64,000 nt of DNA from Thermoanaerobaculia bacterium (GTDB lineage Bacteria > Acidobacteriota > Thermoanaerobaculia > Multivoradales > Multivoraceae): NCBI GenBank assembly GCA_963666565.1, contig OY762911.1:3840001-3904000 (forward strand), in the 5' to 3' direction. This document shows, piece after piece, positions 35,328 through 39,918 of the stretch. Under the pieces are notes generated by a model, which was not told the DNA's origin, ran no database searches, and saw only the letters and a list, made by a program, of their open reading frames with translations. Numbering within the stretch: position 1 is the stretch's first letter; each line of letters begins with the position of its first letter. The position numbers and the translations under genes were made by a program.

Positions 35328-36179
35328 CTACAGGTTCAGCTTCGCAGGGAGGTAGCGGTCGATCAGGCCCTGGTAGTAGGGCCGCAGCTCGGCTGCGTCC
35401 GGCGGACGATCGCTCTTCGAGTAGAGGTCGTAGCCGTTGAAGAGCCGGACCCAGGCGAACATCTCCCGGTCGCGGTCGTCCATCAGCTCCCCGTACGCGC
35501 CTTCGCGGTGGCAGGCGTAGAAGGAGTGGTAGCGGATCATGTAGAGGGCCGGTTCCGGCAGGCAGTCGCGGAGCGCCTGGTAGAGGTACTCGTCGTGGCC
35601 CCAGGACAGGTGGACCCGGCCAAGGCCGCAGCCCGGCTCGTACACGCCGAGCGGCGTCGAGTAGGCCGGATTCGCCGCGTCCGGGTTGCCCTCGAACAGT
35701 TCCGGGTAGACGATACGGTCCGAGAACGCGCAGCCGACCGGGAAGGTGTCGCCGACCACCGCCCACTGCGGCTCGCCCCAGAGGCAGAGCACCTTGCCCA
35801 GGTCGTGGACGAGTCCGGTCAGCACGAACCAGTCCGGGTGGCCGTCGGCCCGGATCGCCTCGGCGGTCTGCAGCAGGTGGTCGAGCTGCGAGAGATCGAG
35901 GTCCGGATCCGAATCGTCGACCAGGGTGTTCAGGAACTCGAGCGCCTCCCAGGCCGAGAGTTCGGCCCGGTCGAAGGTGAGGTACTCCCCCTTCTTGTCC
36001 TGGACGAAGTCCCAGGTCTGGTGGCGGTGGTTCAGCCGGTAGAACTCGCGCACCGTGTCGCGCGGCGGCGCCTCGAAGTCGCGGTAGTCCTCCCGCCGCT
36101 TGCCGCCGGCTTCCGCCGGCGCCGGATAGAGCTCGGCAACGAAGTCGTCCCAGTCGTCCAGTCGCTCGAACGGTGCCAT
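35328..36179 (-). CDS. miox: myo-Inositol oxygenase (di-iron HD-domain enzyme)
   Basis: [63 protein letters not shown]. Confidence 0.93.
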
Positions 36180-36257
36180 GGGCGATACGCTAGCGGAACT
36201 GGCCGCCAAGGTGGTGCCGGCCTCGGCCCCCACCGACACGAGAAAGGCGAACCCACC

Positions 36258-36611
36258 GTGCCCTACACCGTCTACAAGCTGCTGCATGTGCTGGGAGCGC
36301 TGATGGTCCTCGCCGCGGCGGGCGGCGTCGCCGTCCACGCCGCCAACGGAGGACGCCGCGAGGACAACGCCCAGCGCGGTCTCCTCGCCGCCATGCACGG
36401 CGTCGGCCTGGTCCTGAGCGTCGTCGCAGGCTTCGGCATGCTCGGCGCCAGTCTGCCCGGCTGGGCCTGGGCCAAGCTGGCCATCTGGCTGCTCTTCGGG
36501 GCCTCGCTGACCCTCGCCTACCGCGGCCAGACCCTCGCCCGAGCGCTGATCGTCGTCCTGCCGCTGCTGGCGGCGGCCGCCGCCTGGCTGGCGCTCTACA
36601 AGCCCTTCTGA
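36258..36611 (+). CDS. Small four-TM membrane protein
   Basis: [13 protein letters not shown]...HGVGL...GFGML...WAWAKLAIW...LYKPF; SD AAAGG before GTG. Confidence 0.8.
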
Positions 36612-36852
36612 GACGGACCCGAGCCCGCCGGCCCTTCCGTCAGGAACAGGTCAGCAACAAGTCACGTCCGGCCAGCGTCCGGCGGAGCCACAATCGGGCG
36701 TCCGCAGCGAGCGCGACTGTCTCGCCGCGGACGCAGGAACGGGCTCGGGCCCTTCAAGGGGCAGGGCGCGGACCCGTTTCGGCGCCGGGCGATGCGACTT
36801 CGTCGCGCCGTCCGGCGCCACCTGCCCGGGGCGACCCTCCGGGCCCGGCCGC

Positions 36853-37758
36853 TCAGGGGAAGATGCAGGTTGGACAGTCCCCGGCGGCGGCCGCCAGCGC
36901 GCGGTCGGCCTCGCACTGGTAGACCGGACTGCTCGAGCGTTTCGTCCGGGCGTCGCCGCCGAGCATCGCTTCGCGCTTCCAGTCGTCGTCGGACGCCCAC
37001 CTGTAGGGCAGCATCTTCACTGCGCCCGGCCGCTCCAGCTCGTCCATGGCCGCAAGCGCGGCGCGGACGATCTCCCGCTGCATCTCCGGCGCCTTCGGTT
37101 TCCCGGCGGTGTGGCCGAGCGGGAAGTCGAGGAAGGTCGCCCGCGGCGGATCGACGGAGCGGGTGATCGAGAGAGCGGACGTCAGCGACGTCGTCGGAAT
37201 CCCGTCCGCCTCGAGCCGGCGCGCGATCAGTCCCACGGACTGATGGCAGACCGGTCACACGGGGACCAGCAGCGCCAGGTCGACCTGGTCCTCCGCCAGC
37301 CTGCGGCCGATCTCCGGCGCCAGCGTCTCGCGGACGCGGCGGGCGGAGTAGATCCCTCCCATGAAGGCGTAGGCCCGCGGCGACAGTTCCCCGATCGCGC
37401 CCTCCGCGGCCAGCGCCCGCAGCGGCTCGATCGGGAAGACGACGTTCGGGTCGACCCGGGCGTCGGTCTGGTCGTAGGCGAAGTGGCTCGTCCGCAGTTC
37501 CGCGACGGGAACGGAGACGTCGATCGCGCGCAGCGAGATGTCGTCCCGGTGATGGAAGGCGGGTTGCCCGGCCCGGTACACGCCGCCGGAGCCCACCAGC
37601 CCCACCCGGCACTCGCCGAGGGGCTTCGCGAGCTCGGTCCACGGCGGCGGGCTCTCGCTGCGCACCCACCGGTAGGGATCGTGACCCAGGCTGGAGTACA
37701 GCTCGCGCGTACGAACGATGTGATCGACCGGCGGTCTTCGCGTCGTCATGGCGTCCAT
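36853..37758 (-). CDS. Selenoprotein of the PrdB/GrdB (reductase selenoprotein B) family; in-frame TGA at 37257-37255 read as Sec
   Basis: The end of ORF 37255-39687 and ORF 36853-37236 are one frame joined by a single TGA: VDLALLVPV-U-PVCHQSVGLIARRLEADGIPT; DPNVVFPI and FPLGHTAGKP family motifs; start 37758 or 37749. Confidence 0.88.
37216..37254 (-). promoter_or_regulatory. Bacterial SECIS-like hairpin
   Basis: Immediately 3' of the UGA: CCGGUCUGCC-AUCAGUCC-GUG-GGACUGAU-CGCGCGCCGG; perfect 8-bp upper stem; G-starting loop 18 nt from the UGA. Confidence 0.75.
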
Positions 37759-37785
37759 TCTGACCCAAGATAGGATGCGCGCTGC

Positions 37786-38283
37786 ATGACGACCGAGGAA
37801 CGGCCAGCGTCGGCGCCCGATCCGGGCGCCCCGCACGTGGAGAGGAGCGGCCGGCTCGACCTTCCCGAATCCGAATGGCGGTCCCGGCTTGGCGACGACG
37901 AGTTCCGGGTTCTGCGCCGCGAAGCGACGGAGCGGCCCTTCACTTCGGCCCTCGACCGGGAGCACCGGCAGGGCGTCTTCCTGTGCGCCGGCTGCGGCGC
38001 CGAGCTGTTCCGGTCGGACGCCAAGTTCGACAGCGGCACCGGCTGGCCCAGCTTCTTCCAGCCGATCGCCGGCGCCGTCGACACGAAGCGCGACTTCAAG
38101 CTGATCATGCCCCGCACCGAGTACCACTGCGCCCGTTGCGGCGGCCACCAGGGCCACGTCTTCAACGACGGGCCGGCGCCGACCGGCCTGCGCTACTGCA
38201 ACAACGGCGTCGCCCTGCGCTTCCGGCCGGAGTCCGAAGGCGACCCGGAAGCTCGACGTACCGCCCCAGGCAAGGAGGACTGA
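37786..38283 (+). CDS. msrB: Peptide methionine (R)-sulfoxide reductase
   Basis: TERPFT, CAGC, KFDSGTGWPSF, RTEYHCARCGGHQGHVFNDGP, RYCNNG. Confidence 0.96.
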   Translation: MTTEERPASAPDPGAPHVERSGRLDLPESEWRSRLGDDEFRVLRREATERPFTSALDREHRQGVFLCAGCGAELFRSDAKFDSGTGWPSFFQPIAGAVDTKRDFKLIMPRTEYHCARCGGHQGHVFNDGPAPTGLRYCNNGVALRFRPESEGDPEARRTAPGKED

Positions 38284-38286
38284 ACG

Positions 38287-39918
38287 ATGTCGACCACCGC
38301 GCCCACCCGCCGCGCCGCCGGAGCGATCCTGGCCGCCGGCCTCGTCCTGACCCTGGCTTGCGGCGGCGAGCAAGTCGAGCCCCTCACCGCCAGCGTGAAC
38401 ACGGCGCTCGGCGCCGTCGAGGGCCGGGAACTCGAATCGGGAGTCCTCCGGTTCGCCGGCATCCCCTACGCGGCGCCGCCGGTCGGCGACCTCCGCTGGC
38501 GGCCGCCCCAGCCGGCCGCCGCCTGGGAGGGCAGCCGCGACGCCTCGGACTTCTCCGCCGCCTGCTGGCAGCCGCTGTCCCCTCCCGGTTCCTTCTACGA
38601 CGCCGGAGAGATCGAGCGCAGCGAGGACTGCCTCTACCTGAACGTGTGGACCGGCGCCGACCATGCCGGCGCCGCCCTGCCCGTGCTGGTCTGGATCCAC
38701 GGCGGCGGTCTCCAGACCGGCACCGGCAGCACCTTCCTCTACGACGGCGAGAGTCTGGCCAACCGGGGCGTCGTGCTGGTGACGATCAACTACCGGCTCG
38801 GGCCGATCGGCTTCCTGGCTCATCCCGAACTCTCGGCCGAGGCCGAACTCCCGGAGGAGATCGGGGCGCCCGCCTCGGGCAACTACGGCATCCTGGACCA
38901 GATCGCGGCGCTCAAGTGGGTGCAGGCGAACGTCGCGGCCTTCGGCGGCGACCCCGGCCGGGTGACGATCTTCGGCGAGTCCGCCGGATCCTGGAGCGTG
39001 AACTACCTGACGGCGACGCCGCTCGCCGCGGGCCTGTTCCACCGCGCGATAGGCCACAGCGGCGGCATCTTCTGGCCCATGCCGCAGCTTGCGGACGCCG
39101 AGGCCGAGGGCGTCCGCGTCGCCGAGCGGCTCGGCGCCGGCGGCCTCGACGCGATGCGCGCCGCGAGCGTCGAGGAGGTCTACGAAGCGGCCGGCGCCTC
39201 CGACGCCCTCGGCTTCGTGGGCGTCAGCGACGGCTACGCGTTCCCGCGGGACGTCCACGACCTGTTCGCCGCCGGCGAGCAGAACGACGTCGACACGATC
39301 GTGGGCTTCAACAGCGACGAAGGCACCGCTCTCTTCGCCGGCCCCCCGGGCACGACCGTCGCGGACTACCGCCAGTCGCTGGCCGCGAACTACGGCGAGC
39401 ACGCCGACGCGATGTTCGCGGTCTACCCCGCCGAGACCGACGACCAGGCGCGCGAGGCCGCGTACGAGAACCTCGCCGACCAGTTCTTCGCCTGGCAGAT
39501 GCGGACCTGGGCCAGGCTGCAGAGCCGCACCGGAGAGCGGCCGATCCGGATGTACTTCTTCTCCCGCGTGCCGCCCTGGGACGAAGCGGAGACCTACGGC
39601 TCGTACCACGCGGCGGAGATCGTCTACGCCTTCGACAACCTGCACAAGACCGGCGAGACGAGGGACGAGATCGGTCCCTTCAACCATGCCTGGGACGACA
39701 CGGACCGGGCCCTCGCCGACACGATGGCGAGCTACTGGGTGAACTTCGCCGCAACCGGCGATCCGAACGGCGACGGCCTCCCCGACTGGCCCGTCTACGA
39801 TCCCGACGCGGACGGCGTCCTCGAACTGGGCGACGAGATCGGCGTGATCCAGGGCCTGCTCGAGGACCGGCTGGACGCCTTCGACGCCTACTACGAAGAC
39901 CTCCGCGGCAACGGTTAG
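38287..39918 (+). CDS. Carboxylesterase type B lipoprotein
   Basis: Lipobox TLAC; SEDCLYLNVWT, WIHGGG, FGGDPGRVTIFGESAG, YHAAEI. Confidence 0.93.
   Translation: MSTTAPTRRAAGAILAAGLVLTLACGGEQVEPLTASVNTALGAVEGRELESGVLRFAGIPYAAPPVGDLRWRPPQPAAAWEGSRDASDFSAACWQPLSPPGSFYDAGEIERSEDCLYLNVWTGADHAGAALPVLVWIHGGGLQTGTGSTFLYDGESLANRGVVLVTINYRLGPIGFLAHPELSAEAELPEEIGAPASGNYGILDQIAALKWVQANVAAFGGDPGRVTIFGESAGSWSVNYLTATPLAAGLFHRAIGHSGGIFWPMPQLADAEAEGVRVAERLGAGGLDAMRAASVEEVYEAAGASDALGFVGVSDGYAFPRDVHDLFAAGEQNDVDTIVGFNSDEGTALFAGPPGTTVADYRQSLAANYGEHADAMFAVYPAETDDQAREAAYENLADQFFAWQMRTWARLQSRTGERPIRMYFFSRVPPWDEAETYGSYHAAEIVYAFDNLHKTGETRDEIGPFNHAWDDTDRALADTMASYWVNFAATGDPNGDGLPDWPVYDPDADGVLELGDEIGVIQGLLEDRLDAFDAYYEDLRGNG

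Follow-up and report, generated by a model that had tools for sequence, protein, structure and literature searches.

A predicted PrdB-like selenoprotein with a C-terminal CxxC, encoded head-to-head with msrB in a Thermoanaerobaculia genome

The locus and its UGA codon

The window considered here is a stretch of 64,000 nucleotides from the genome of a Thermoanaerobaculia bacterium (Acidobacteriota; assembly GCA_963666565.1, contig OY762911.1, positions 3,840,001 to 3,904,000). On its minus strand, head-to-head with msrB, lie two open reading frame (ORF) pieces that share one frame and are split by a single TGA (37257-37255) in the context VPV-U-PVCHQSVGL. The joined translation reads V-P-V-U-P-V-C-H-Q-S at the break and ends in ...YQCEADRALAAAAGDCPTCIFP. 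An earlier reading of the DNA, made from the letters alone (the sequence-only reading), had pointed out these pieces, the TGA, a hairpin behind it, the C-terminus, the two possible start codons and two promoter-like hexamers, and all of them were found at the positions it had given. The locus very probably encodes one intact selenoprotein of 298-301 residues, an orphan, stand-alone member of the PrdB/GrdB superfamily, which has msrB as its neighbor by inherited gene order.

Related loci were collected in a scan with one genome per species, which gave 225 stretches, and the best 80 were used. This set consists of 37 close loci (L015-L051; Thermoanaerobaculia, Ca. Multivorans-like) and 43 loci from other lineages, including Binatia, Gammaproteobacteria/Pseudomonadales, Chloroflexi, Myxococcota and Thermodesulfobacteriota. 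The search patterns did not select for TGA, and the sole pattern over the site had Cys codons there. TGA is present at the selenocysteine (Sec) column in all 80 loci, in the context [AVT][LI]LVP[VT]-TGA-PVCHQ, and the frame behind it stays open for 131-166 further codons to the conserved C-terminus. The same is seen within the host family, where 56 of the 57 genomes have a match: each of the 50 orthologues above 300 bits (one per genome) contains exactly one TGA.

The second source of comparison was a library of 1.84 billion proteins, from which 149 representatives of the 150 best listed relatives were aligned. The Sec site is spanned by 91 of them, and 69 of these full-length relatives have Cys at the column. 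The remainder have Ser (6), Gly (6), Trp, Arg or Asp (2 each), or Thr, Glu, Phe or Asn (1 each). Thr or Trp at this column is found, for example, in P0007, P0036, P0165 and P0249; Trp may reflect a TGA that the source translated under another code. The column is thus occupied by TGA or mostly by Cys, which bears out the claim of a selenoprotein with a UxxC motif.

The expectation that gene callers would split such a gene was also correct. Of the 120 homologues at the top of the list, 114 stop at the TGA, spanning only 51-55% of the protein, one spans 64% and five span at least 93%. The N-terminal fragments are 165-170 residues long, and the C-terminal halves are called separately, from residue 170 or 175. 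Databases therefore hold mostly half-proteins of this family, and the fragments carry names such as 'D-proline reductase (dithiol) PrdB' (JGI) or 'glycine/sarcosine/betaine reductase selenoprotein B family protein' (NCBI).

The selenocysteine insertion sequence (SECIS) is a stem-loop located just downstream of the UGA, with a G in the apical loop. The window has a hairpin of this form, with the stem 10 nt and the GUG loop 18 nt from the UGA, the latter as in the sequence-only reading. Considered as a single sequence, the hairpin is unremarkable for GC-rich DNA (z = -1.76; 11 of 200 shuffles fold at least as well). Its significance comes instead from the comparison across relatives (81 sequences, 73 distinct rows), in which silent sites are frozen and compensatory changes occur. 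The third codon positions within the stem have entropies of 0.33, 0.10, 0.10, 0.38 and 0.00 bits, while that of the loop has 0.91 bits and those of the 14 flanking codons (without the UGA codon) range from 0.76 to 1.91 bits. The pair 18-34 changes from U-A to C-G in three distinct rows, at the cost of an Ile-to-Val change. A single row has A-U in place of G-C at the pair 21-31, where, as at the pair 22-30, one-sided changes to G-U or U-G are found too.

The tested structure leaves 87.2% of the cells paired, compared with 27-44% when the partners are slid by 1-3 columns. The observed covariation score was reached by none of 500 shuffles, a significance that is overstated because the sequences are related. 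Judged by these patterns, the hairpin is clearly under selection across the 81 sequences. The outer helix of the single-sequence fold (columns 7-11 with 41-45) was rejected, as 44 and 39 of the 73 rows cannot form its two outer pairs. No Rfam family was found for the hairpin, and only four chance-level matches occurred elsewhere.

The machinery necessary for the decoding of UGA is complete in the host genome, which consists of one contig of 4.79 Mb and is 97% complete by marker genes. The selA (430.7 bits), selB (349.7 bits, summed) and selD (219.7 bits, summed) genes all score above the curated cut-offs, and a tRNA-SeC(tca) was found by ARAGORN, so that the check proposed in the sequence-only reading gave all four components. 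A composition-filtered scan of the genome for in-frame TGA codons resulted in 70 candidates, from which six were picked by redox motif. All six match known selenoprotein families across the TGA: three belong to AhpC-TSA (with the motifs U-G-C, U-P-Y-C and T-A-G-U, the last of the TxxU type), two to UGSC and one to CMD/AhpD-like proteins (C-F-Y-U). Each has a hairpin after the UGA, and one UGSC gene has the same 8-bp stem and GUG loop as the window gene. Six further candidates of this kind indicate that the Sec system is regularly used. A Sec-type formate dehydrogenase is missing from the genome: none of the matches exceeded the cut-off or contained a stop. ARAGORN also listed, at G000:C1 2788914-2789006 (-), an unusual 'tRNA-???' of 93 nt whose anticodon has only two bases (gg).

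Because the TGA is kept in all related loci and in all family orthologues, homologues have Cys in its place, the hairpin is under selection and the Sec machinery is present, the window gene is, by comparative evidence, a genuine selenoprotein gene, with its UGA decoded as Sec. The features of the locus are listed in Table 1.

Table 1. Features of the PrdB-like locus (window positions) and further candidate selenoprotein genes of the host genome (last row, positions in G000:C1)
Feature	Position	Strand	Remarks
PrdB-like selenoprotein gene (predicted)	36853..37758	-	translation with TGA=U; 301 codons from ATG 37758, 298 from ATG 37749; stop TGA 36855-36853
Sec codon UGA (predicted)	37255..37257	-	residue 168 from ATG 37758, 165 from ATG 37749; first residue of U-P-V-C
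Cys171 codon	37246..37248	-	Cys of UxxC (UPVCHQS); C171, H172 and Q173 at least 90% conserved in alignment A3
SECIS hairpin (predicted)	37226..37244	-	8-bp stem AUCAGUCC/GGACUGAU, loop GUG
C-terminal CxxC	36865..36876	-	CPTC, residues 295-298; tail CxxC in 78/80 loci
CAGAAT, -10-like hexamer	37757..37762	-	7 nt upstream of ATG 37749; candidate promoter
AGGA, likely Shine-Dalgarno of msrB	37772..37775	+	10 nt before ATG 37786, inside 'TAGGAT'
msrB, peptide-methionine (R)-S-oxide reductase	37786..38283	+	Pfam SelR 156.4 bits; TIGR00357 149.4 bits, cut-off 113
myo-inositol oxygenase (MIOX)	35328-36398	-	362 bits
carboxylesterase	38287-39918	+	360 bits
Six candidate selenoprotein genes (L095-L100), outside the window	1177399 (+), 1133915 (+), 2172334 (-), 4259244 (-), 2998258 (-), 4074554 (+)

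A PrdB-like family and its missing partner

The homology to PrdB and GrdB proposed in the sequence-only reading was supported by the profile searches. The best NCBIfam match is PrdB (TIGR04483; E 4.6e-50), covering residues 36-255 with 170.3 bits, below the equivalog cut-off of 300. The score for the selenoprotein B subfamily (TIGR01918) is also below its cut-off (52.5 bits against 65.45). The Pfam GRDB domain (PF07355) is matched with 41.9 bits, above the gathering threshold of 22. The matched part runs from residue 45 to 165 and aligns with positions 221-345 of the 347 in the profile, which ends at the Sec site and therefore covers only this part of the protein. An authentic PrdB of 241 residues (P0149) reaches 453.2 bits on TIGR04483, and nine other listed relatives range from 113 to 197 bits. 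Since the score of the window protein is below the cut-off and similar to those of other PrdB-like relatives, the protein is, by its sequence, a member of a broad PrdB-like radiation in the PrdB/GrdB ('selenoprotein B') superfamily and not PrdB proper.

The residues around the active site were compared in the alignment A3, which consists of 46 of the 80 loci and the window protein (47 Sec-form rows) and of 28 database proteins, including P0149. The database rows have Cys (27) or Thr (1) at the Sec column. The U-P-V-C-H-Q-S of the window protein aligns with the C-G-T-C-H-R-S of P0149, and D103, R206, H92 and D73 are conserved throughout, including the authentic PrdB. These four residues weakly hint at a small charged, amino-acid-like substrate. 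The window gene is the sole GRDB match in the host genome. As a side observation, many genomes of the host family (G002-G056) contain additional PrdB-like paralogues with 33-40% identity, most of them with one in-frame TGA, and up to six PrdB-like matches occur in a single genome (G014).

Authentic PrdB, reportedly described by Kabisch et al. in 1999 as the D-proline reductase protein of the Clostridium sticklandii type, is homologous to the window protein over residues 36-255 and has Sec or Cys in the same column, followed by x-x-C-H-[QR]-S. Unlike PrdB, the window protein scores 170 bits instead of 453, is encoded alone, and is longer by about 35 residues at the N-terminus and about 46 at the C-terminus, the latter including the CxxC. 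The glycine reductase proteins GrdB, GrdF and GrdH (PF07355, TIGR01917/01918) belong to the same superfamily and have Sec at the equivalent position. However, the window protein corresponds to only the C-terminal third of the approximately 430-residue GrdB, its NCBIfam scores are far below the cut-offs, and its host has no match to GrdA or GrdE.

The partner of PrdB is the pyruvoyl protein PrdA, and the sequence-only reading had called the window protein an orphan and proposed a search for prdA/grdE. The profiles of PrdA/GrdE (PF09338) and GrdA (PF04723) gave no match in the host genome, in searches that also matched in 0 of 14 control genomes. As a positive control, a 599-residue PF09338 protein encoded directly upstream of authentic PrdB in metagenome contigs was used as a tblastn query. 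It found a match beside 77 of 80 authentic PrdB loci but beside none of the PrdB-like loci (0/80), nor anywhere in the host genome, in agreement with the orphan status. Because PrdA/GrdE is absent from the genome, the protein does not, on this genomic evidence, serve as the B subunit in a Stickland reductase of D-proline or glycine.

A substitute partner was not apparent from the gene neighborhood. No gene family recurs across the lineages beside the 43 distant loci, the largest clusters comprising only 17-21 loci. The scanned neighbor clusters are lineage-specific (NuoF/NuoG-like, Exo_endo_phos and glutamate-synthase-like proteins); for the largest, with 21 loci, Pfam gave no match. Relatives of the peroxiredoxin (Prx), Prx-like, UGSC and AhpD-like proteins of the genome were found within 4 kb in none of the 80 loci.

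The most distinctive part of the protein is its C-terminal tail. The sequence-only reading had noted a C-x12-CPTCIFP ending, which is present in the window protein with the CPTC codons at 36876-36865. Among the related loci, a CxxC is retained within the last 60 residues in 78 of 80, as CPTC (36), CEVC (12), CGVC (8), CPVC (5), CATC (5), CPGC (4) and other variants. The upstream Cys is found in only 26 loci (24 of the 37 close, 2 of the 43 distant); the CxxC part of the motif thus held, and a three-Cys motif was rejected. In the alignment A3, the CxxC is present in 45 of the 47 Sec-form rows and in 1 of the 28 database rows, and it is missing from the latter even where the preceding tail (W..DD.WK...P.YQ.E.DR) is present. 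Four proteins (P0135, P0156, P0158 and P0170) of a further PrdB-like subfamily, with Cys at the Sec column, end in C-x-C (…IRCNC, …IRCAC, …IACAC). Terminal Cys pairs, as CxxC or C-x-C, thus seem to recur in the PrdB-like superfamily, and CxxC-tailed PrdB-like selenoproteins appear to be common in Acidobacteriota, Binatia, Gammaproteobacteria, Myxococcota and Chloroflexi.

The AlphaFold2 model of the joined protein, calculated with A3, is a compact single domain with a mean predicted local distance difference test (pLDDT) score of 95.5 and a predicted template modeling (pTM) score of 0.93. The tail is confidently predicted, with block means of 93, 97 and 95 over residues 271-300 (95 for 291-300). 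The search of PDB sequences gave no matches with the single sequence and four with the A3 profile (E 0.13-0.55), none of them meaningful, and the Foldseek search of the model against PDB gave no matches at E <= 0.001, with a best TMq of 0.29, so that neither the sequence nor the model has a helpful relative among the solved structures.

On the comparative evidence, the UGA is read as Sec by SelA, SelB, SelD and tRNA-Sec of the host, directed by the 8-bp hairpin 10 nt downstream. In the mechanism proposed in the D-proline reductase literature, Sec of PrdB is the nucleophile and Cys resolves the adduct to a Se-S bond. By analogy, a most likely catalytic cycle can be outlined for the window protein. 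Sec168 would act as the nucleophile, and Cys171 would resolve the adduct into a selenenyl-sulfide (Se-S). The Cys295/Cys298 pair could reduce this bond and be restored in turn by thioredoxin or another general thiol system. Such a cycle, with the CxxC as a relay, would make the protein a self-contained thiol-dependent reductase of a small substrate, a tentative proposal whose chances are somewhat short of even.

Electron transfer through C-terminal tails is known from the Cys pair of the class I ribonucleotide reductase R1 and the GCUG tail of mammalian thioredoxin reductase. The likeness to these tails is one of analogy only: the terminal Cys pair could shuttle electrons from an external thiol to a buried redox pair. 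Unlike them, the window tail has no homology to either and is modeled with high confidence as docked instead of as a flexible arm.

The msrB neighbor and the alternative explanations

The two genes are divergent, and the in-frame ATGs 37758 and 37749 are separated from the msrB start codon (37786) by 27 and 36 nt, the distances given in the sequence-only reading. It had also described overlapping -10-like boxes on the opposite strands. Both hexamers exist (TAGGAT, 37771-37776, +; TATCTT, 37772-37767, -), but the reading of the two as overlapping promoter boxes was not supported. The distance of TATCTT to the start of the PrdB-like gene is not fixed in relatives. A scan of 36600-38400 with the sigma-70 consensus gave 0 sites. 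The sequence GATAGGATGC, which contains AGGA, keeps its distance to the msrB ATG even in relatives with a longer spacer, and the TAGGAT/TATC stretch looks like the Shine-Dalgarno site of msrB.

A different motif is associated with the PrdB-like gene. The arrangement CA[GC]AAT-N6-8-ATG, in frame, is found in 34 of the 37 close loci. The in-frame ATG lies 164 codons before the TGA in 34 of 37 close loci (170 in five), and in the five loci whose start lies six codons farther upstream, CAGAAT moves with the ATG. Because the motif and the ATG travel together in relatives, the true start is likely ATG 37749 and not 37758. By its position, CAGAAT may be the promoter of an mRNA with no leader or almost none.

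The conservation of the msrB neighborhood is limited to one lineage. As the divergent neighbor, msrB is present in 36 of the 37 close loci (L044 is without a match) and, within 4 kb, in 0 of the 43 distant loci. MIOX (35 of 80 loci) and the carboxylesterase (39 of 80) are retained in the same close set. Since distant loci lack msrB and other neighbors are also kept, the linkage reflects lineage synteny and not a travelling pair. The head-to-head msrB is therefore, as far as gene order can tell, a neighbor inherited in one acidobacterial lineage, and the proposal of a redox/repair module with MsrB is not supported by this pattern.

Could the TGA be a true stop, separating two genes or marking a pseudogene or an assembly error? 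Only the database gene calls, with their separate N-terminal and C-terminal fragments, agree with this. It would leave unexplained a TGA shared by all 80 loci and all 50 family orthologues, an open frame beyond it, Cys forms that run across the site as single proteins, selection on the silent sites of the hairpin, a complete Sec machinery and a model in which the joined protein forms one compact domain (pLDDT 95.5). The comparative data effectively refute a stop, and its probability is minimal. That the protein is in fact the B subunit of a reductase of the D-proline or glycine type, with a pyruvoyl partner encoded elsewhere or too divergent to be seen, is very unlikely. In its favor, PrdB is the best family match (E 4.6e-50), and the U-x-x-C-H-Q-S stretch of the active site as well as D103, R206, H92 and D73 are common to authentic PrdB. 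Against it stand both scores below their cut-offs (170 against 300 and 52.5 against 65.45 bits), the extra N- and C-terminal segments that the 241-residue PrdB does not have, the oxygen-dependent MIOX among the neighbors, and the lack of a PF09338/PrdA-like protein in the genome and the 80 loci, compared with 77 of 80 in the control set.

The third alternative is a Sec-dependent repair module, in which the PrdB-like protein and msrB are co-regulated, for instance for the regeneration of a 1-Cys MsrB. The head-to-head layout with a 27-75-nt spacer in 36 of the 37 close loci speaks for it, and so do the thiol-redox types of all other candidate selenoproteins of the genome. The msrB gene is the only SelR match in the host genome, and its product contains GTGWPSF where many MsrB proteins carry the resolving Cys, so that the window MsrB looks like the 1-Cys type. 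The module is nevertheless unlikely: none of the 43 loci of other lineages has msrB within 4 kb, the linkage is no stronger than the general synteny that also conserves MIOX and the carboxylesterase, an operator or palindrome common to both genes is not visible in the spacer alignment, the promoter scan gave no sigma-70-like pair, and each conserved spacer motif stays with its own gene. A single intact selenoprotein, orphan and stand-alone, with msrB as an inherited neighbor, is thus the preferred explanation of the locus.

Several points weigh against this explanation. The 97% completeness of the genome bears on the absence of the partner, and since the PF09338 and PF04723 searches were silent in all 14 control genomes, this absence rests mainly on the tblastn control. 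A very divergent pyruvoyl partner could have been missed by the searches. Two loci of the Sec clade, L050 and L089, are without a CxxC, and both the catalytic cycle and the role given to the CxxC are analogies. Since the Sec forms examined belong to one clade, kinship may account for the joint occurrence of CxxC and Sec. Finally, a functional link to msrB in this lineage keeps a small probability, given the conserved 27-36-nt spacer in 36 of the 37 close loci and an MsrB without the usual resolving Cys.

A bolder combination would be that the CxxC-tailed proteins form a distinct class of self-sufficient Sec-dependent reductases that need no pyruvoyl partner, and that in the Multivorans lineage one of them was recruited as the dedicated reductant of the sole 1-Cys MsrB. 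As a whole, this is a long shot. If the class were real, the pyruvoyl partner would be dispensable because the C-terminal dithiol recycles the Sec-Cys center.

Relation to the marine selenoproteins and minor observations

The sequence-only reading had presented the gene as a hidden find, which does not apply to its family. 'Proline reductase PrdB' (UxxC, pfam07355) has been named in marine selenoproteomes since 2005, when it ranked third in abundance among the selenoprotein families of the Sargasso Sea, with 42 genes (Zhang, Fomenko & Gladyshev 2005, PMC1088965). In the Global Ocean Sampling (GOS) survey, it was again among the most abundant, with 235 Sec forms and 110 Cys homologues (Zhang & Gladyshev 2008, PMC2398784). 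By the descriptions in these sources, the marine family shares with the window protein the pfam07355 match, the UxxC with Sec first and an origin in environmental, non-Stickland bacteria (PMC1088965, PMC2398784). The window protein has the features that define the family in Table 2 of PMC2398784 (pfam07355 and UxxC with Sec), a correspondence by description and not by sequence alignment. The marine family is also described as co-occurring with Prx, Prx-like, UGSC and AhpD-like selenoproteins, and the same set is found in the host genome. With the PrdB-like gene added, the six candidate genes match the 'marine selenoproteome' described in the GOS survey.

The passages of the two surveys that describe the family make no mention of a missing PrdA, a C-terminal CxxC or a function beyond the name. 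In the parts that concern this family, reviews of 2022 and 2026 list D-proline reductase among the known selenoproteins and do not set orphan forms apart. The literature search, which did not extend to the supplementary sequence lists of the surveys, found no study of an orphan PrdB form, a missing partner or a CxxC tail.

The window gene opens no new category, as its family is already catalogued in the ocean surveys, and the new details are modest. They comprise the SECIS hairpin with its compensating base changes, an absence of PrdA that a control search backs, the conserved CxxC of the tail, the CAGAAT motif ahead of the start codon and the expansion of TGA-containing paralogues in the host family. 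PrdB-like proteins are abundant in ocean metagenomes and yet are named after a clostridial fermentation enzyme whose essential partner they lack. The window offers a clean example of them in a closed 4.8-Mb acidobacterial genome with full Sec machinery, a defined SECIS and no PrdA, and the conserved C-terminal CxxC suggests a catalytic cycle that can be tested.

Among the surrounding genes, the oxygenase noted in the sequence-only reading is a genuine MIOX by its profile score. Farther neighbors include a DcuC-type carrier, parts of an ABC transporter and a DEAD-box helicase. Between MIOX and the PrdB-like gene, positions 36260-36611 (+) form the C-terminal part of a long shadow ORF, which has no Pfam match and looks like a small protein (about 115 residues) in which several segments are hydrophobic and membrane-like.

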